DNA of 64,000 nt from Minisyncoccia bacterium (GTDB lineage Bacteria; Patescibacteriota; Minisyncoccia; Phycocordibacterales; UBA9973): contig JBBRTD010000001.1 in assembly GCA_038244685.1 (NCBI GenBank), positions 166,392 to 230,391 on the forward strand, in the 5' to 3' direction. The translations under genes were made by a program, and so were the position numbers. The notes below the pieces were generated by a model, which did not search any database, was not told the DNA's origin, and saw only the letters and a list, made by a program, of their open reading frames with translations. This document shows, piece by piece, positions 6,247-62,932 of this stretch; position 1 is the first letter of the stretch, and every line of letters begins with the position of its first letter.

Positions 6247-6435
6247 GATAGTATATTTTTTGTTTTTTCAGCATCCCTACATCTTTTCTGCTTTTCAGAT
6301 TGAACAGATTGTATTTGTCTGATTTGTTTCAAGTATAGCACAATATAGGGTCTTTGTCAATAACAATATAAATTGCTATTATTCCTTATATTTTGAAATA
6401 TTCAAAATATAAGGTAATATATTCATATCCAACAT

Positions 6436-6509
6436 CCGCCCTTAGCTCAGTTGGTTAGAGCACAGAGCTTATACCTCTGGGGTCCTAGGTTCGAATCCTA
6501 GAGGGCGGA
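6436..6509 (+). tRNA. tRNA with anticodon UAU (reads AUA; tRNA-Ile(UAU)-type), 73 nt plus discriminator, CCA not encoded
   Basis: Hand-folded cloverleaf. Acceptor CCGCCCU/AGGGCGG, D-arm GCUC-AGUUGGUUA-GAGC, anticodon stem CAGAG/CUCUG with loop CUUAUAC (U33, anticodon UAU, A37), variable loop GGGUC, T-arm CUAGG-UUCGAAU-CCUAG. Confidence 0.8.
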
Positions 6510-6556
6510 CAATACAAATAACCTTACCGTCGTAAGGTTATTTGTATTGTCCGCCC
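6503..6556. terminator. Long (24-bp stem) hairpin that incorporates the tRNA 3' acceptor strand; bidirectional terminator between tRNA (+) and ftsH (-)
   Basis: GGGCGGACAATACAAATAACCTTA / CCGTCG / TAAGGTTATTTGTATTGTCCGCCC is a perfect inverted repeat. Confidence 0.55.
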
Positions 6557-8443
6557 TTATTTCTCTTCTACTTCCTTCTTCTTTGGAGTTATTCCATTAG
6601 CAATTATAATGTCATTATATTCTTTCTGTTCTAAGGTCTCTACATCTATAAGTTTATTCGCAATCGCATCTAAGACCTTACGCTTTTCGAGAAGAACAGC
6701 TCTGGCCACAGAAAATGCATTATTCATAATTTTAGAAACTTCTCCATCGATAACAGCGCTCATCTTTTCTGAATATTCTCTATCATTAACACCTTGACCA
6801 AACATTGTTCGCCCACCGTCACTCTCGAGTGCTATTGGACCTATTTCTTCACTCATTCCCCAACGTGTAACCATAGCGCGAGCTAAGCTTGTCGCAACTT
6901 GTAAATCGTTCGATGGTCCAGTTGTAATATCTCCAAAAACCATTTCTTCGGCAACGTAGCCACCGAGCGACATTGCTATATCATCTAAGAATTCTTTTTT
7001 ACTCTGAAGACGTCTTTCTTCTAATGGAAGCTTCAAGGTGTAACCACCAGCATTACCACGAGAAACAATTGAGACTTTATGGACAGGATCAGCGTGAGGG
7101 AGCATTGAGGCAACAAGAGCATGACCTGCTTCGTGATATGCTGTAATTTCTTTCTCTTTCTTTGAGAGTAAATGACTCTTTCTTTCAGGACCCATCATAA
7201 CCTTTTCAATTGAACGGATTAAATCAAACTGTGCAATCTTTTTCCTATCTTCACGCGCTGCTAAAATTGCTCCTTCGTTCATTATAGAAAACAAGTCAGC
7301 ACCAGAAAATCCCGGAGTACGTTCTGCAATAACTTTCAAATTTACATCTTCACCAAAAGGCTTTTTACGAGAGTGGATTATAAGTATTTCCTCGCGATCA
7401 AGACGATCAGGTAAATCAAGCATGACTCTTCTGTCAAATCTTCCTGGACGAAGAAGAGCTGGGTCTAAGACATCTCCTCTGTTTGTTGCGGCCATAACTA
7501 TCACCTTTTCATTCGGTTCAAAACCATCCATCTCAACAAGAATTTGGTTTAAGGTCTGTTCACGTTCATCATTTCCACCACCAACCCCTGTGCCACGAAC
7601 TCGTCCAACTGCATCTATCTCATCGATAAAAACAATAGAAGGAGCAGCCTTTTTGGCCATTTTAAATAAATCTCGAACTCGAGATGCTCCGACACCGACG
7701 AACATTTCAACGAACTCTGAACCCGACAAATGAAAGAACGGAACGGCTGCTTCTCCGGCAACAGCCCGAGCCAGCAATGTCTTCCCTGTTCCTGGAGCTC
7801 CAGTAAGTAAAACTCCTTTTGGAATTCTTGCTCCAATATCTAGAAATTTTTTAGGATTTTTTAAGAAGTCTACAATTTCTTTTAATTCTTCTTTCGCTTC
7901 CTTGGCACCAGCGACATCTTTAAAGGTAACTTTATTATTCTTATCATCTGGGTCAGTAATTCTAGCTTTGGATTGTCCGAAAGTAAAAGCTTGCATACCC
8001 TGCCCTTTTACTTGACGAGTCAACATCCAAATAAAAAATATAATTATAAAGACGGGAAGTAAAAATGGAAGTATGTTCAATAACCAATAAGTAAAACCTG
8101 ATTCTGTTTTAATTTCAATCGGAGTAGCAGATAGCTCAACAGGAGTTACACCATAATTATACAAAGTAGTAGAAAGTGAACTTTCTAATTCTTTCTTGGC
8201 TACACCTTTAGTCTGATCTTTAAAAGTAACATTAATATCACCACCCGAAACGATAATTTTCTCAACAGAGCCATCTACTACACTTTTGGCCACTTCTGAA
8301 ATAGTCATCTTCTTTATATCCTCTGGCTTCTTAGAAACAAGCGTATAGACAAGCGTAATACTAATAAAAATGAACACAGCAATGATTATCTGGTTGGCAA
8401 TATTGGGTATTTTTGGTTGAATTGGTTTTTTGTTTTTATCCAT
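6557..8443 (-). CDS. ftsH: ATP-dependent zinc metalloprotease FtsH (start probably at MDKNKK, ORF track extends to 8494)
   Basis: N-terminal TM helices, AAA+ Walker A GAPGTGKT, Walker [12 protein letters not shown], zinc-binding HEAGHAL. Confidence 0.93.
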
Positions 8444-8708
8444 AATACTTAATAGTATACACAAATATGGCAAATAAAAAAACGTCTGATGCAAGCAACA
8501 GACGTTTTAATGTAGACAAAACTCAAAAAAAACTTAACTAAAGTAAAAACAAAACTGCAAAATAGTTCAGGAGACTAATGAGTGCTTATAAAGCGCACAT
8601 TAACCCTTAACAATTAAATTGAATTAATTATGTTAATTTCAATAGTATTAAATCAAAATATAAGAAAAAGGTCAAGGGGGTAAATAGATTTTGTATTATT
8701 AGCTATTA

Positions 8709-9173
8709 TTGGTACCATATAAATATATGGCAACATATATAGACAATAGAAAGGCACACTTTAATTACAGCATAGAGGAAACTTTCGAAGCCGGAATAGA
8801 ACTTTCAGGTTTTGAAGTTAAGGCTATTAAAAATGGCTCAGGAAACTTGAACTCGGCCTTTTGTGTGATTCGAGGTGGTGAAGCTTATATATTGAATATG
8901 CATATTCCACCATATCAGCCTCATAATATTGATCCAGGATATGACCCGGACATGACGAGACGACTTCTCTTAACCAAAAAAGAGATAAAGAAATTAGCAG
9001 ATAAGGATGATATGAAAGGATTGACTCTCATCCCCTTATCGCTGTATAGTAAAGGGCGTTATATTAAAGTATCTATAGCTGTGGCTCGAGGCAAGAAAGT
9101 TTTTGATAAAAGAGAAACTATTAAGAAACGAGAAACCGATAGAGAAATAAGAAGAGAGTATAAGGTTCGTTAA
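8709..9173 (+). CDS. smpB: SsrA-binding protein SmpB (alternative start at 8727 MATYID)
   Basis: Conserved SmpB N-terminal region NRKAHFNYSIEETFEAGIELSGFEVKAI and basic C-terminal tail. Immediately upstream of tmRNA. Confidence 0.88.
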   Translation: MVPYKYMATYIDNRKAHFNYSIEETFEAGIELSGFEVKAIKNGSGNLNSAFCVIRGGEAYILNMHIPPYQPHNIDPGYDPDMTRRLLLTKKEIKKLADKDDMKGLTLIPLSLYSKGRYIKVSIAVARGKKVFDKRETIKKRETDREIRREYKVR

Positions 9174-9178
9174 AAATT

Positions 9179-9570
9179 GGGGATGATCGGCTTCGACAAG
9201 AGGAATCATCTTATATATGCATGTAAAGTACTCAGGAATCTTTTAAAACTTCTTGGAAAAGACTAAGTGCAAACAAAGTCGCTTCAGTAAAATCACCTTA
9301 CTCTTTTGGGTTTGCTGGTTTTGCTCCCGCTTTCGCCTAAATTTAGGCCTGGTGGGTGTCCGCTCTTTTGACATCCGATATAAAGAGTGGGCATCATTTA
9401 TCGGGTTACGAAATTACAACCGCTTGATGTAATCTCCGACAATTAAAAGCTCGCTATTTATCTTTCTTGTATGTTCTCTAGGATAAACATCTAAACGAAA
9501 TGGACATACTAAACATGTAGACTTCTATAAGATTTCTTTTTGCACGCGGGTTCGATTCCCGCCATCTCCA
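9179..9570 (+). ncRNA. ssrA: tmRNA (ssrA), standard one-piece
   Basis: 5' GGGGAUGAUCGGCUUCGACA pairs with 3' ...CAUCUCC-A. 3' tRNA-like domain GCACGCGGGUUCGAUUCCCGCCAUCUCCA with T-loop GGUUCGAUUCC. Candidate tag reading frame ends ...GCU CCC GCU UUC GCC UAA AUU UAG (peptide ending ...FAPAFA, double stop). Confidence 0.85.
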
Positions 9571-9576
9571 CATATT

Positions 9577-9605
9577 AAAAAACCCTTATTCTATAAGGGT
9601 TTTTT
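9577..9605. terminator. Terminator hairpin AAAAAACCCTTA-TTCTA-TAAGGGTTTTTT. The palindrome extends outward to 9563-9620 and includes the tmRNA 3' end.
   Basis: Perfect stem with A6/T6 flanks. The wider inverted repeat CATCTCCACATATT...AATATTGTGGAGATG. Confidence 0.6.
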
Positions 9606-9820
9606 AATATTGTGGAGATGAGCTTTGTCCCTGCGGACAAAGCGTGCTAGAAGCGAAGACATTTTCCGTGTGAGCTCGCGAACGGAAAAGGTATACTGAC
9701 CCTGTAAGGGTTGATAAGGCTACTGCCGGTCCCGCCAATTTTAGTTATTCAGTATTTTGTTTATTTAATAACCATCTTTTTTTAAAAATGATTTAATTAG
9801 TAATAAGGTTATTAAAAATA

Positions 9821-9863
9821 CAAAATAAGGACATTTATCACTATGGTAAATGTCCTTATTTTG
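9821..9863. terminator. Hairpin CAAAATAAGGACATTTA-loop-TAAATGTCCTTATTTTG downstream of the minus-strand MTase-ATPase operon
   Basis: 17-bp perfect stem located 3' of the gene ending at 9910 (minus strand). Confidence 0.5.
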
Positions 9864-9909
9864 TATACATATTGTTTTATCCCCAAAGTGCGTAAAAAGT
9901 ATGTTATGA

Positions 9910-29876: not shown

Positions 29877-32612
29877 TTAGCTTTTATACTTTTCCATTAT
29901 TTCGGCTTCTACCTCTTCACGAGCGCGACCATATTTTAAGTAAGATAACTGTTTAATTTTTTCTACAATCTCAGGATCATTTCCTTTGGGGGTTAAGCTC
30001 CAATGAGAGGTCATACTAAAAGGTTTTACTGGCGTTCCACTCACAAGCATGCTTACATATGAATTAAAATTGTCTAGTTTAGTAATATCTGAAGCAGTAA
30101 AGGCTGGTTTAAATTTCTGTTCTACAAAGTTTGCATCTTCTGTACTGATACGATATATAGCCATCGAGCCAACGTTTCCAAAAACAGCATTTTTTATCCC
30201 CTCTTCTAATTGCGATATGTATTGATGAGCAATAGTTAAAGACAATCTATATTTACGTGCCTCAGAAAGAATTGATGAAATAGAGTCTGTCGTTACATTT
30301 TGAAACTCGTCTATATATAAATAAAAATCATTCATTTTTTTCCCATACATATCTACCCTAGAGAGTGCAGCCATTTGAATTTTACCAACAATAAGTAGGC
30401 CTATAAGATTGGCATTCACTTCTCCAAGTCTACCTTTCGAAAGATTTACAAGAAGAATTTTTTTATTATCCATTATGTCTCGGAAATTAAAAACAGATTT
30501 TTCCTGAAGAACAACTGGACGCATAATATCGTTTGAGATAAAGTTATCAAATTTAGAGGTAATGTAAGGAACAAAGTTGGCAATAGATTGATCGCCAGTT
30601 GTCTGCTCTGCGCTTTTCCAGAATTGAGTAATTATCGGATTTTTACAATGACTTAACTTCATATCACGAAATGCTTTGTCAGACAAAACTCTCCCGATTT
30701 CTAAAAGAGTTGCTCCACTTTCAGGATGTTCCATAACAAGAAAGGCCGAGTTTTTAAAATACTGTTCAAACATCGGACCTCCTGAAGTTTTCATGTCAAA
30801 AAGTTTATTGAAGATACCCATCAATTCATTTACAACGAAAGTTTTTTGTTCAGGATAATTTGGATCATATTCGAGCATATTAAGTCCCATTGGGCGAGCT
30901 GTATAAGCTGGATCAAAATAAATAACATCATCAATGCGCTCTTTGGGGACGTAACTTAAAATATCCTGAATATCACTTCCGTGTGGATCGATAAAACAAC
31001 AACCTTCACCATTTTTAATATCCTGGGCAATCATATTTTTCAAAATAGTTGTTTTACCTGTTCCAGTCTGACCTATGACATACATGTGACGCATTCTATC
31101 CTCTCGAGACATGCGAATCTCTGTATCTTTTCCGCGATAGCTATTTATACCAAGCAATATACCCTCATTCCCCATTTCCATCGGAGCAGGAGCAATCCCT
31201 GCTTTAGCAAGTTTAAGCTGAGAAGAGACGACTCCATAAGGAAAGTGAAAAATAGTTGCGAGTTCTTTTAAATTAAGAGGCATCTTATATTCATCAGAAA
31301 ATGTTCGATAAGAAAAATCATGAATAAGGTTCATTAAATCTCCACCCTTTGGATGATTAAAATTAAATCCATTTCTATCTGATTCTGTAAACTGATTAAA
31401 TGATGATTCTATTTCTGAAAGTATTTGCTCTGATCTTATTCTTGATTCAGCTGAAGCAATGATACGAATGTTTGTTGCCATAATAGTACTCTTCAATTTT
31501 TCTCCAATATATTCAACTGCTTTATCATTAACTTTCTTGTCTTCTTTCTTTTTAGAAGCACCAAAAAATAATTCAGAAGCTAAACTCTTGAATTCTTTTG
31601 TAACCTGGCGAGTCACACTTGAAGCTGTTCGAACAGACATGCCATCTTTTACATCAGCTAAAATAATATGAAATTTTCTAATTATTTCTTCATCTTCCGG
31701 ACAAATTGTAAGCTGGATTGAAGCTCCTTCTCCTGTCTTTTTAAGCTTAGTCAGAACATTAAGAATTATATTTAAAGGGTCGTGATCAATTGCATCATAA
31801 AGTTTAATAGGATAAACCTCGTGGTGAGCAAGCGTTGCGTAAGAGGCACTAATAAAACCATTCTCGGAGAAAACATTATAGTCATCTGGGACTTCTGTAA
31901 CTTTAGCATTTAAATGTACTCCCAATAATTGCTTCTCAAAAAGCTCAGCTTTGTGAACGGGCACTGCAACATAAAAAATAAAACTATCTGTTCCTTCTGC
32001 AAGTGCAATTTCCAAAGTAAAATGATTCCGGTTAAAATTTTCTCTACCTTCCCCTACTGAATGCATACCTGCATAGAATTGCTCCATTGCAGAAAGTAAT
32101 TCTTTTAATCCTTTTTTATTAGCATCATTGTCAGTAGCATCAGGCAAGGCAATTTCAAAAAGCTTCATATTGAGTGATTTGAAAAGTGGCGTACCTTCTT
32201 TAAGTCCAGGAACTTTATGTGTTGTATATAAATATTGAACAAGGAAACGATGGAAGTCGTCATCTAAATGAGGATTATTCATTTTAGCAACAACAGAAAG
32301 AGCATTTGAAATTCCTTTATCTAATAGGACTCCCAATAATTCTTCCATTTTACTGTCATGTGTTTCTGGCTGTAATCTTAAAACAAAATTTTCAATGTCA
32401 CTTTTCTTCATAACGGCATTTTTATGCAAAACACTTTCTGGTTCATATTTACGATATTCAGAGATCACATTATGAGCAAGGTCTTCTTTGTTTACCTCCC
32501 TACCTTGTTCATTCAAAGCTTTTTCTCTCTCGGCAATATGAGCACGCAAAAAAGTTAACTCCTCTTCTGGAGTTTTAAATTTAGGTGCATTATTTAGATT
32601 AAATCCTTCCAT
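29877..32612 (-). CDS. FtsK/HerA-superfamily P-loop NTPase, TraD/VirD4 (type IV coupling protein)-like or HerA-like; 911 aa, no obvious N-terminal TM anchor
   Basis: Walker A IGQTGTGKTT, FIDPHGSD (DPxG motif of TraG/HerA families), Walker B FYLYIDEFQNV, TIAHQ. About 450-aa N-terminal region of unknown function. Confidence 0.55.
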   Translation of the reverse strand: MEGFNLNNAPKFKTPEEELTFLRAHIAEREKALNEQGREVNKEDLAHNVISEYRKYEPESVLHKNAVMKKSDIENFVLRLQPETHDSKMEELLGVLLDKGISNALSVVAKMNNPHLDDDFHRFLVQYLYTTHKVPGLKEGTPLFKSLNMKLFEIALPDATDNDANKKGLKELLSAMEQFYAGMHSVGEGRENFNRNHFTLEIALAEGTDSFIFYVAVPVHKAELFEKQLLGVHLNAKVTEVPDDYNVFSENGFISASYATLAHHEVYPIKLYDAIDHDPLNIILNVLTKLKKTGEGASIQLTICPEDEEIIRKFHIILADVKDGMSVRTASSVTRQVTKEFKSLASELFFGASKKKEDKKVNDKAVEYIGEKLKSTIMATNIRIIASAESRIRSEQILSEIESSFNQFTESDRNGFNFNHPKGGDLMNLIHDFSYRTFSDEYKMPLNLKELATIFHFPYGVVSSQLKLAKAGIAPAPMEMGNEGILLGINSYRGKDTEIRMSREDRMRHMYVIGQTGTGKTTILKNMIAQDIKNGEGCCFIDPHGSDIQDILSYVPKERIDDVIYFDPAYTARPMGLNMLEYDPNYPEQKTFVVNELMGIFNKLFDMKTSGGPMFEQYFKNSAFLVMEHPESGATLLEIGRVLSDKAFRDMKLSHCKNPIITQFWKSAEQTTGDQSIANFVPYITSKFDNFISNDIMRPVVLQEKSVFNFRDIMDNKKILLVNLSKGRLGEVNANLIGLLIVGKIQMAALSRVDMYGKKMNDFYLYIDEFQNVTTDSISSILSEARKYRLSLTIAHQYISQLEEGIKNAVFGNVGSMAIYRISTEDANFVEQKFKPAFTASDITKLDNFNSYVSMLVSGTPVKPFSMTSHWSLTPKGNDPEIVEKIKQLSYLKYGRAREEVEAEIMEKYKS

Positions 32613-60135: not shown

Positions 60136-60402
60136 ATGGAACCAACAACACCAACAGTAGCAGTAGCAAATAATAAATCAAAAATGGCTATCATTGTAAT
60201 TATAGTATTAATCATAATCGCTGGAGCGATAGCTGTAATATCACGTAGAGGAAAAACAGAAGTAAATCCTGCAAATAATGGGGAGGTTCAAAATGGTACA
60301 GTCTCCGAGTCGGATGATTCTCAAATCTTAACACAAGAGATTACTGCAGCCACAACATTTGATAATGAAAAAGATTTAAGTGAAATAGATAGCGCCTTCT
60401 AA
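60136..60402 (+). CDS. Small single-pass membrane protein (88 aa)
   Basis: TM IIVIIVLIIIAGAIAVI, acidic C-terminus. Confidence 0.45.
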   Translation: MEPTTPTVAVANNKSKMAIIVIIVLIIIAGAIAVISRRGKTEVNPANNGEVQNGTVSESDDSQILTQEITAATTFDNEKDLSEIDSAF

Positions 60403-60415
60403 TAATAGAATAAAT

Positions 60416-60445
60416 AAAAACCCTCGGAATATTCCGAGGGTTTTT
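60416..60445. terminator. Bidirectional terminator AAAAACCCTCGGAAT-ATTCCGAGGGTTTTT
   Basis: Perfect palindrome between convergent genes. Confidence 0.6.
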
Positions 60446-60455
60446 ATTTATTCTA

Positions 60456-61928
60456 TTATTGTTCTATATAAGTTGTATTCATCTTATCTACTGGAATCGT
60501 TACAGAGTCTGAGATAGAAGCTCCGTAGAATCCTAGACATGAAATAGTATATTTTGTATCTCTCTTTAGGGCTGGAGTTACATAAGGACTATTTTCATTT
60601 CCTCCACAACTGCCGCTTACTCCTGCTTTATCAGAATATTCACAAGAACAAGAATCAACATTTTCGGAAGTCCAAATTACTTTTGCTTTTCCGTTATAAG
60701 TAATTTTTTGACCAGTAGGAAGTGGTTTGTCTTTCCAAGTAAATGAAACATTCAAAGCTGGACATAGATTATTTGTATAGTCTCTACTTGTTGCCATACC
60801 ATCAGCATCAGGCGCACAAGGAGCACCTCCATTTAAAGGTTCAATACAAGATCTTGTTTGAGTACCACTACCTGGACAAGTACTTGATCGAGATGTCCAT
60901 GCCGTCCAAGCACCATCTACTTTTGGACCTGCAGGTGGAGTAGCAATACAAACTGAACCATTCCAAGTACAATTATTTAACTGTGCATCAACATATTTAC
61001 TTGCTAATTCTTTTCCAGTGTTATAAAGGAATAATGTCGTTGATTCACCATAAGATAGAGTTAAAGATTTATTTCCAACATCCCCTGTGGCGAGAGTCTT
61101 ACCACCAGTACTTTCGGTTACAGCAGAAGCTCCAACTGTTTCTGGATTAGTAACCTTCCAAGAATAAGGAACAGCACATGAACTTTCGCCAATACTTATA
61201 AGACAACTAGTTGCATCCAAATTACCAGACATCGGACCGGCAGGATATTTACAATTATCACTTACATAAGTTGAATTTGAATTAGTAACCGGTGTTTCAA
61301 AAATACATCCAGGAAAATCACTTTTTGTTTGCTTTCTTATTACTGAACCAGAGATAGCAGCATCACCATTCCCGTTTAAGTCACAAGCAACAGTAACGTT
61401 CTTAGTTAGAGGAGCAGGGCAAACTGTTCCGCAGGCTTTGGTATCATTATCTGCTGCGGGACAAGCAATTCCACCATTTGATGCTGGAGTAGTTATATTG
61501 TAAGTTTCAGTTCCGTTTACACAAGAACTCCAACTACCAACACAATTTGTTCCACAGGTACGAGTCGCATTATCGGCAAAAGAACATACCGCCCCGCCTC
61601 CTGATGCAGGCGAAGTAATATTATAAGTCTGAGTTCCGTTTGAACATGAACTCCAACTACCAACACAGCTTGTTCCACAATTTTGAGTTGCTCCATTAAC
61701 TGCCGAGCAGACAGCGCCACCGTTTTCGGCTGGAGTGGTAATGTTGTAAGTTTGAGAACCATTAATACAAGTGCTGTAACTTCCCGAACAATCAACAACC
61801 CCAGCTCCTGCTCCTACGACTTGGACAGTTGCGGTTCCAGAAATAGAAGCCGCATTGGCAGAAATAAATCCTAATATAAAAAATGAGAAAACGAATAAAA
61901 TAATTTTTGAAATTTTCATTGCGTTCAT
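60456..61928 (-). CDS. Secreted Cys-rich protein (490 aa) with three short TSR-like modules and one fuller TSR-like module
   Basis: Signal peptide. Three repeated modules C(G/I)(T/N)(S/G)...W(S)SC.NGT.TYNIT.PA..GG..C. C-terminal DGAWTAWTSRSSTCPGSGTQTRSCIEPLNGGAPC. Confidence 0.7.
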   Translation of the reverse strand: MNAMKISKIILFVFSFFILGFISANAASISGTATVQVVGAGAGVVDCSGSYSTCINGSQTYNITTPAENGGAVCSAVNGATQNCGTSCVGSWSSCSNGTQTYNITSPASGGGAVCSFADNATRTCGTNCVGSWSSCVNGTETYNITTPASNGGIACPAADNDTKACGTVCPAPLTKNVTVACDLNGNGDAAISGSVIRKQTKSDFPGCIFETPVTNSNSTYVSDNCKYPAGPMSGNLDATSCLISIGESSCAVPYSWKVTNPETVGASAVTESTGGKTLATGDVGNKSLTLSYGESTTLFLYNTGKELASKYVDAQLNNCTWNGSVCIATPPAGPKVDGAWTAWTSRSSTCPGSGTQTRSCIEPLNGGAPCAPDADGMATSRDYTNNLCPALNVSFTWKDKPLPTGQKITYNGKAKVIWTSENVDSCSCEYSDKAGVSGSCGGNENSPYVTPALKRDTKYTISCLGFYGASISDSVTIPVDKMNTTYIEQ

Positions 61929-62782: not shown

Positions 62783-62862
62783 ATGTTAAGGTATTTGTTT
62801 CTTCCTTTAAATAATGATATATAAATGGGAATTAGTCAAATTTTAACAGTGGATAACTTTTT

Positions 62863-62914
62863 AAGTATATACAAAATAAAACCCTATATTTAGGGTTTTA
62901 TTTTGTATATACTT
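62863..62914. terminator. 52-bp perfect palindrome AAGTATATACAAAATAAAACCCTA-TATT-TAGGGTTTTATTTTGTATATACTT
   Basis: Exact reverse-complement arms centred at about 62888. Confidence 0.55.
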
Positions 62915-62932
62915 AAATTTATTTAAGAGATA

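Follow-up and report, generated by a model that had tools for sequence, protein, structure and literature searches.

The stretch of DNA analysed here (the window) is 64,000 nucleotides of a Minisyncoccia bacterium (assembly GCA_038244685.1, contig JBBRTD010000001.1, positions 166,392 to 230,391). It holds a transfer RNA (tRNA) gene whose UAU anticodon is encoded directly in the genome and whose 3' acceptor strand continues into a long hairpin. This locus raises two questions: does such a tRNA serve in the decoding of AUA codons, and why does a hairpin at its 3' end take up part of the mature tRNA? The reading that we favour, and hold to be probable without regarding it as secure, is that a functional tRNA-Ile(UAU) shares a terminator with the neighbouring ftsH gene, and that this terminator is at the same time the stub of a family of non-coding elements, with the structure X-T-antiX. 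In this notation, X denotes the 3' end of a tRNA-like gene, T a terminator, and antiX a segment exactly complementary to X.

A tRNA-Ile with a genomically encoded UAU anticodon

The tRNA locus comprises the following features.

6393-6420, plus strand: promoter-like site (TTGAAA, 16 nt, TAATAT), a consensus scan match only, about 15 nt upstream of tRNA-Ile
6436-6509, plus strand: tRNA-Ile(UAU), anticodon at 6470-6472 (ARAGORN, Rfam RF00005, related loci)
6502-6557, no strand: perfect 26-bp palindrome (inverted-repeat search, terminator scan, fold energy)
6557-8494, minus strand: ftsH (TIGR01241, 779 bits), convergent with tRNA-Ile, stop codon at 6557-6559

The genomic UAU anticodon reported in the original prediction is real. 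ARAGORN calls a tRNA-Ile with anticodon TAT at 6436-6510, and the Rfam tRNA model RF00005 scores 70.5 bits at 6436-6509. The acceptor stem is CCGCCCU/AGGGCGG, with a C1-G72 pair and discriminator A6509 (A73); because CAA follows directly 3' of this discriminator, the gene does not encode its CCA. ARAGORN finds two RNA genes in the window, this single tRNA gene and that of transfer-messenger RNA (tmRNA).

A search with FtsH of one-per-species genomes returned 80 related loci (66-91% identity, designated by L numbers below), all from Nomurabacteria, Paceibacteria or other Patescibacteria. tRNA-Ile(TAT) adjoins ftsH in 73 of these 80 loci, or in 74 of 81 with the window included. The window itself comes from a bacterium of the Paceibacteria/Nomurabacteria. 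AUA usage had been suggested as a check on the tRNA, and the count makes AUA a major codon: ATA represents 389 of the 1191 Ile codons (32.7%, or 27 per 1000 codons) in 34 coding sequences of the window, and 28.5% of the Ile codons in its ribosomal-protein and RNA-polymerase genes. Since the gene is kept beside ftsH in so many relatives and AUA is abundant, tRNA-Ile(UAU) can be regarded as a working AUA decoder and not as an oddity. Judged from its sequence and its conservation, it is a functional gene that has been vertically conserved in this candidate phyla radiation (CPR) lineage and decodes an abundant codon.

UAU anticodons of this kind have precedents. Mycoplasma mobile possesses a tRNA-Ile2 with an unmodified UAU anticodon, and UAU-type tRNA-Ile occurs in Bifidobacterium and Neorickettsia, both of which are without tilS (Taniguchi et al. 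2013, PMC3575796). As in these bacteria, UAU is encoded in the genome on an otherwise canonical tRNA-Ile, and AUA is a normal Ile codon. Unlike them, the present host belongs to the Patescibacteria (CPR), and the acceptor stem begins with C1-G72. TilS-independent decoding, which the original prediction took the anticodon to imply, is a candidate strategy only. Neither tilS nor an isoleucyl-tRNA synthetase gene was found in a scan of open reading frames (ORFs) that covered part of those in the window and did not extend to the remaining genome. A search up to 6 kb from ftsH in the 80 relatives showed no TilS-like PP-loop ORF, the sole PP-loop match being GuaA-like, and the library searched yielded no paper linking lysidine or tilS to CPR bacteria. 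In many bacteria, such as Bacillus subtilis, tilS adjoins hprT-ftsH. The UAU tRNA-Ile of the window stands directly beside ftsH (6436-8494), and the resemblance to the tilS-hprT-ftsH order may be coincidence.

Several further observations concern the tRNA-Ile locus. The gene is co-directional with ftsH in most relatives and convergent with it in the window, L003, L004, and L176, and degenerate copies of the tRNA 5' end lie near the locus in L002, L003, and L004; these differences in orientation and 5'-end copies point to inversions and duplications at this site. Partial copies of the tRNA-Ile 3' half are found downstream of the intact gene in L016, L020, L031, L039, L044, L048, L051, L054, L057, L059, and L076. 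They begin at the anticodon loop or the T-arm, sometimes differ in acceptor type (C1-G72 versus G1-C72), and look like scars of repeated integration or gene replacement. In the window, an imperfect hairpin with 21-nt arms (6377-6421) overlaps the promoter-like site and is located between the divergent promoter-like sites of tRNA-Ile and a LysM-domain gene.

A probable shared terminator between tRNA-Ile and ftsH

The hairpin had been described as 24 bp long and as including the 3' acceptor strand of the tRNA. It is real and perfect and does hold all 7 nt of that strand, but its length is 26 bp, 2 bp more than proposed. The arms (6502-6527 and 6532-6557) are 26 nt each, 100% complementary, and separated by the 4-nt loop CGTC (6528-6531), giving a folding energy of -44.2 kcal/mol. 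The left arm consists of the whole 7-nt 3' acceptor strand, the discriminator, and an A-rich trailer, and the right arm is a U-rich stretch followed by CCGCCCT, which reproduces the 5' acceptor strand exactly. The ftsH stop codon overlaps the final base of the palindrome, and thus the hairpin exactly fills the gap between the two convergent genes.

The inner part of the hairpin, an A-rich arm, a CCUUAC stem, and a U-rich arm, is shaped like a bidirectional intrinsic terminator, and a terminator consensus scan flags the hairpin on the plus strand, with 20 counted pairs and a T-rich tail of at least 5 T in 8. On the minus strand, CUAGGAUU comes after the full stem. The most suitable reading of the hairpin is a terminator common to the two convergent genes, tRNA-Ile and ftsH. 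This order of arms, the position exactly between convergent genes, and the scan result are all shared with bidirectional Rho-independent terminators; unlike in those terminators, the arms here are 26 bp and perfect, and the acceptor strand of the mature tRNA itself forms the stem base. A second or degenerate tRNA gene 3' of the hairpin was considered and rejected: the match covers no more than 10 nt, and what stands there is the ftsH 3' end.

In the mechanism that we propose, transcription would start about 10-15 nt upstream of tRNA-Ile, and the hairpin would nucleate at its inner stem and zip outward. RNA polymerase would stop either within the U-rich 3' arm or, past the full stem, at the UUAUUUCU tract. 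The trailer would be removed and CCA would be added enzymatically. Transcripts that contain the distal arm could refold with the acceptor stem open.

Perfect palindromes are also found at other gene ends in the window, with 30-nt arms and zero loop at 60401-60460, with 27-nt arms at 62860-62917, and, in several instances, with arms of 16-18 nt. Terminators in the form of very long perfect palindromes are habitual in this genome. Like the tRNA hairpin at ftsH, the palindrome at 60401-60460 extends into a convergent gene's stop codon. The 30- and 27-nt arms at unrelated gene ends support a first alternative, namely that the tRNA hairpin is a neutral by-product of a genome that perfects and extends its terminator palindromes, for instance by template switching on hairpins in replication. 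A terminator abutting an unchangeable tRNA gene would then come to copy the 5' acceptor strand in its distal arm, without any function past termination and without any link to structured cores. The comparisons below bear on this alternative.

A complete element behind the tmRNA

Further on, the tmRNA gene of the window is followed by a related and longer arrangement.

8709-9173, plus strand: smpB (NF003843/TIGR00086), immediately upstream of tmRNA
9179-9573, plus strand: standard one-piece tmRNA, tag ANKVASVKSPYSFGFAGFAPAFA (RF00023, 129.5 bits; ARAGORN 9179-9571)
9563-9620, no strand: tmRNA tail palindrome (inverted-repeat search; -35.6 kcal/mol)
9612-9737, plus strand: class A element on tmRNA (covariance model R2, alignment, covariation, homologues)

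The original prediction was correct in placing the same architecture at the tmRNA 3' end. The tmRNA gene encodes no CCA. An inner classical terminator at 9572-9610 (AAAAAACCCTTAT-tct-ATAAGGGTTTTTT, with 18-bp perfect arms and an A-tract, stem, and T-tract) is extended outward with one bulge to 9563-9620, such that the tmRNA 3' end, CATCTCCACA, pairs with an anti-acceptor segment, TGTGGAGATG (9611-9620). Unlike ordinary intrinsic terminators, this hairpin therefore reaches past its U tract, an extension that is not needed for termination. Beyond it lie a junction hairpin (GCTTTGTCC-CTGC-GGACAAAGC, 9622-9643), a degenerate anti-T-arm (9644-9659), a structured core, and a direct but partial copy of the T-stem 3' strand of the tmRNA (GGTCCCGCC, 9728-9736). 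Model R2 matches 9646-9736 with 78 bits (E = 6e-15). In the window, the tmRNA thus carries the full element, and tRNA-Ile keeps the palindromic stub alone.

A permuted (two-piece) tmRNA was rejected as the source of this tail, as RF04321 reaches 29.8 bits against a gathering threshold of 47 and the standard tmRNA is complete. The order of the tail (T-arm, acceptor 3' strand, loop, acceptor 5' strand) is nevertheless like that of circularly permuted tmRNA genes, and it is this local resemblance in strand order that accounts for the weak partial match to RF04321.

The element family in related bacteria

In relatives, an identical tRNA-Ile is followed by a terminator, an anti-acceptor, a 9-bp junction hairpin, an anti-T-arm (complementary to the T-loop and the T-stem 3' strand), a structured core of 70-130 nt that belongs to class A or class B, and a direct but partial copy of the tRNA 3' end. 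The tmRNA genes of the window and at least 12 relatives likewise carry the anti-acceptor, a 9-bp hairpin in which the CTGC loop is conserved and the stem covaries freely, the anti-T-arm, and the core. The offset from anti-acceptor to anti-T-arm is a constant 33 nt after tmRNA in at least 12 loci, with the same layout after the tRNA-Ile of L018. A tRNA-Ser has both segments at an offset of 29 nt in L076, and another has the anti-T-arm only in L066. The junction hairpin, 25 nt with a conserved CTNC loop, recurs together with the anti-T-arm at three different RNA genes. Elements in L006, L010, L012, L018, and L074 are closed by a direct copy of the gene's T-loop-to-3'-end segment (13-63 nt), which in L018 is 63 nt long and includes the terminator.

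A metagenome scan with the window tRNA 3' end followed by GTCCGCCCT as the query returned eight contigs (L176-L183), and in all eight an identical tRNA-Ile is followed by the full series. L176 shares the window's convergent arrangement of this tRNA and ftsH, but has a core in between. The relatives with convergent genes form a graded series, from L176 with a full class A element, through L003 with a B-type remnant and the window with the full anti-acceptor only, to L004 with only GGTCC. Because of this series, the window tRNA-Ile hairpin is read as the core-less left end of an element type. On this comparative evidence, the outer part of the hairpin (AGGGCGGA / UCCGCCCU) would be the X-T-antiX left boundary, or stub, of the non-coding element family.

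Near-identical core subtypes are found on different RNA genes with arms matched to each gene, as in L003 tmRNA and L177 tRNA-Ile, and in L013 and L176. Moreover, elements stand in tandem arrays in L007, L011, L079, and L180. We suggest that the elements are, or were, mobile. Literature searches for tRNA-tail palindromes or such elements returned nothing relevant, and the family is apparently undescribed.

Structure of the cores

The cores fall into two classes. Class B has the layout AAAG-NCGGAG-hairpin-GAG-NC-NGGGUCG-hairpin-GUGACC, with 20 predicted pairs, of which 13 show compensatory changes, and with a G·U pair that is invariant on the tRNA strand. Class A has 16 pairs, 11 of them with compensatory changes, and a conserved U·G pair. 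At E < 1e-4, the class B model (R1) gives 27 matches and the class A model (R2) 13 matches in about 1 Mb. The fold of the tRNA strand is more stable than that of the opposite strand in 13 of 16 elements, and therefore folding appears to be strand-specific, either as RNA or as single-stranded DNA.

Only tRNA and tmRNA match at the Rfam gathering threshold in the window and 11 related loci, and permissive Rfam scans of the tmRNA tail and the L018 element returned no known ribozyme, intron or small RNA. Hammerhead and similar self-cleaving ribozymes were rejected because their core motifs do not fit in a comparison made by eye only.

Complementarity to the gene end is maintained

A strict palindrome criterion (arms of at least 12 nt, at most 1 mismatch, no bulge) was applied to 135 tRNA and tmRNA genes from the window and the 80 related loci. 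Of the 135, 7 are entered by a palindrome to a depth of at least 4 nt and 4 to a depth of at least 8 nt; shuffling of the final 10 bases of the genes gives rates of 0.19% and 0%, respectively. The reach of palindromes into these genes is not due to chance.

The distal arm also follows the gene when the gene differs. In L018, AGGACGG pairs with CCGTCCT, and in the tmRNA genes of L077 and L079, CGTCTCC pairs with GAGACG. In the window and L003, CAA...TTG stands in place of the CCA...TGG of relatives, and several T-arm variants among the relatives are likewise matched by their complement. Among the 13 genes in which the anti-acceptor 8-mer is found, 12 have it without a mismatch, and 16 of 18 flagged genes have the anti-T 12-mer with no more than 2 mismatches; the downstream direct copy can be recognised in only 5 of these. 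These counts indicate that antiX is maintained while the direct copy decays. It seems that complementarity to the gene end is kept either by selection or by a process at the DNA level that perfects palindromes.

The explanation of the hairpin as a neutral by-product can now be weighed. The arms are usually perfect and not merely stable, both in the window and in about 10 different trailers of relatives, and the 63-nt direct repeat of L018, terminator included, is what fold-back copying followed by a return to the template would be expected to leave. However, the recurrence of the 25-nt CTNC junction hairpin and the anti-T-arm in one layout at three RNA genes, the retention of antiX while the direct copy decays, and the attachment of cores with strand-specific covariation all speak against it. 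We therefore regard the by-product explanation as unlikely.

Possible refolding of the tRNA precursor

It had also been proposed that alternative folding could compete with formation of the acceptor stem. For the full precursor, a fold with the 26-bp hairpin and an open acceptor stem has -60.3 kcal/mol, versus -53.9 kcal/mol for the cloverleaf with a 19-bp hairpin. For a transcript ending in the U-rich 3' arm, the minimum-energy fold is the cloverleaf. Competition is thus thermodynamically plausible, but only if the distal CCGCCCU is transcribed; otherwise the cloverleaf prevails.

A second alternative would make this refolding the purpose of the hairpin. The distal arm would act as an RNA switch against the 5' acceptor strand, regulating or timing tRNA and tmRNA maturation (RNase P cleavage, 3' trimming, and CCA addition). 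The 6.4 kcal/mol by which the alternative fold lies below the cloverleaf in the full-length precursor, the need for CCA addition to both RNAs, as CCA is encoded by neither gene, and the maintenance of complementarity across lineages would be consistent with such a switch. In tmRNA and most relatives, however, a canonical U-tract terminator stands between the gene and antiX, and most transcripts should therefore be without the competing strand. A ligand or sensor element is not evident, and L001, L002, and L013 manage with plain terminators. Thus, an RNA switch is in our view very unlikely.

A probable genomic island at the tmRNA end

The tmRNA element borders a segment with the following features.

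9738-14911, no strand: stretch of about 5.2 kb absent from the closest syntenic relative, L002 (blastn synteny break from 9737 to 15058)
9910-11547: BbrUII/HgiDII-type restriction enzyme, in the island (gene-family search)
11537-12604: Dcm-type cytosine methylase, in the island (gene-family search)
14912-15001, plus strand: degenerate second antiX-core-X' module with tmRNA-matched arms (model R1 at 14922-14981, 26.4 bits)

Relative to L002, the insertion of about 5.2 kb starts exactly after the terminal GGTCCCGCC of the tmRNA element. In addition to the restriction and methylase genes it holds a 216-amino-acid ORF, and 1.4 kb (12605-14006) without an ORF of more than 75 amino acids. It is terminated by the second module, which consists of GTGATGGCAGGAATCGAAAGAC, a B-like core, and GGTCCCGCCA. 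The direct repeat at the window tmRNA is only 9-10 nt, GGTCCCGCC(A), at 9728-9736 and 14992-15001. The stretch is probably an island added at the tmRNA-end repeat. An ORF listed for a HAD-family hydrolase (14896-16053) is over-extended in the 5' direction, through the element at 14912-15001, and comparison with L002 suggests that its true start is probably the ATG near 15043.

Islands at the ssrA genes of Dehalococcoides are integrated at the tmRNA 3' end with att direct repeats (PMC3146451). The present case resembles such tRNA and tmRNA islands in its direct repeats of the gene 3' end, its tandem accretion, and its restriction-modification island at tmRNA. It differs in that the units are only 150-250 nt, are without an integrase, and have an inverted att copy and a structured core.

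A third alternative builds on this resemblance. The folded X-T-antiX would be a DNA recombination site that mimics the duplex gene 3' end and serves as an attachment site for small integrative elements, with a recombinase acting in trans. Hairpin attachment sites are known from integron attC and the hairpin attP of CTX phage. The T-loop-to-3'-end repeats that flank elements in five relatives, the four tandem arrays, the restriction-modification island placed exactly at the tmRNA-end repeat and closed by a second antiX-core-X' module, and the core subtypes common to different RNA genes with matched arms are all in line with this explanation. Nevertheless, no integrase, recombinase, transposase or reverse transcriptase was found in the window island or beside elements in 7 relatives, and the conserved G·U pairs suggest RNA or at least strand-specific folding. 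Nor was a free or phage-borne copy found. A first pattern gave 95 matches in viral contigs, none with the required hairpin and in a number consistent with chance on a rough estimate of the collection size, and a second pattern gave zero matches. A phage origin of the elements was rejected on these two scans, and we judge a DNA recombination site to be quite unlikely.

Copies away from RNA genes

A shorter form of the class B core, B-lite, is also found outside RNA genes in the window.

23766-23829, plus strand: B-lite core in frame in glmM (nhmmer E = 1.4e-18; orthologue comparison)
28165-28279, plus strand: stand-alone B-lite core at a hairpin tip (terminator-like hairpin, 26-bp arms AGAATTAAAATACTCCTACA…)

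The glmM gene (23342-24769, phosphoglucosamine mutase) contains an insert of about 64 nt that adds approximately 22-25 residues, translated as ...GSLAQAGEQSREIFQQENIRAD..., which are extra relative to a solved homologue. Among glmM orthologues at 75-88% identity, the insert is present in some and absent in others, and P0004 uses another frame. The recG gene of L006 (L006:5917-5980) has an in-frame copy of the B-lite repeat with a near-identical peptide, SSSQADGPRKEIFQQKNIRAD. B-lite also sits at the tips of terminator-like hairpins with locus-specific arms in L010, L015, L070, and L080.

Rickettsia palindromic elements are 100-150-bp repeats in intergenic and protein-coding regions (PMC1779305). 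The elements described here are similarly short, multi-copy, and hairpin-forming, and they occur both between genes and in frame (glmM, and recG of L006). The likeness is in behaviour only. The host phylum is another one, the closing arms are locus-specific, and a subset is placed on tRNA and tmRNA genes, where the arms exactly complement and copy the T-loop-to-3'-end segment of the gene.

A separate GC-rich hairpin (28137-28164) lies just before the stand-alone B-lite core. A gene at 26746-28152 encodes a beta-CASP metallo-beta-lactamase ribonuclease, for which the best NCBIfam matches, type VII Cas14 and archaeal aCPSF1, are both below cut-off; this enzyme could be relevant to RNA 3'-end processing here. 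A 911-amino-acid protein encoded at 29877-32612 has a TraD/VirD4-like coupling-protein segment.

Weight of the evidence and a broader proposal

Several points weigh against reading the tRNA-Ile hairpin as both a terminator and an element stub. The term stub rests on comparison with relatives, and the hairpin could be a remnant or a precursor. Downstream of the window tRNA-Ile there is no core, anti-T-arm or direct repeat, the last sought with up to 3 mismatches. On the ftsH strand no U tract follows the full stem, and the inner arm alone is U-rich. Long perfect palindromes elsewhere in the window imply that palindrome extension by itself could have produced the tRNA hairpin without any link to the elements. 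The lack of recombinase genes and the viral null result bear on the elements as a whole, and termination, processing, and expression of the elements are themselves matters that we infer. Even so, the graded series of convergent relatives, together with the complete element behind the window tmRNA, leads us to prefer the combination of a functional tRNA-Ile(UAU) and a shared tRNA/ftsH terminator that is the X-T-antiX stub of an element family.

We also advance a broader proposal, tentatively and with more doubt than belief. Paceibacteria (CPR) may harbour new multi-copy elements of about 70-250 nt with strand-specific structure, a subset of which docks on the 3' ends of tRNA-Ile(UAU), tRNA-Ser(GCU), and tmRNA. 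Their spread would be templated by base pairing or hairpins with no element-encoded recombinase, terminator loops and in-frame genes would have been colonised as well, and the tRNA-Ile hairpin would be the minimal docking palindrome. The docking arms may then mimic the top half of a tRNA, with the acceptor and T stems present and one hairpin replacing the D and anticodon arms. Candidate purposes of the complementarity to tRNA ends include such a mimic of the tRNA top half in RNA, a DNA hairpin attachment site, and fold-back copying.

Implications

UAU-anticodon tRNA-Ile is already known elsewhere; no description of the element family could be found. Lysidine-free decoding of AUA has so far been described for a few Mollicutes, Bifidobacterium, and Neorickettsia. 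A UAU tRNA-Ile fixed across a large CPR clade would extend it to a major branch of bacterial diversity, in which, judging by the window, AUA makes up one third of Ile codons.

The tails of these RNA genes expose structured non-coding elements that are absent from Rfam and that copy or complement the ends of essential RNA genes. Such elements create a risk of mis-annotation in CPR metagenome assemblies, in the form of over-extended ORFs, pseudo-tRNA ends, and extra peptide segments in proteins. Should the elements prove mobile, they would be a CPR counterpart of the Rickettsia palindromic elements, unusual in having an architecture matched to the target; should they prove to be functional RNAs, they would represent a new class of tRNA-like structure.

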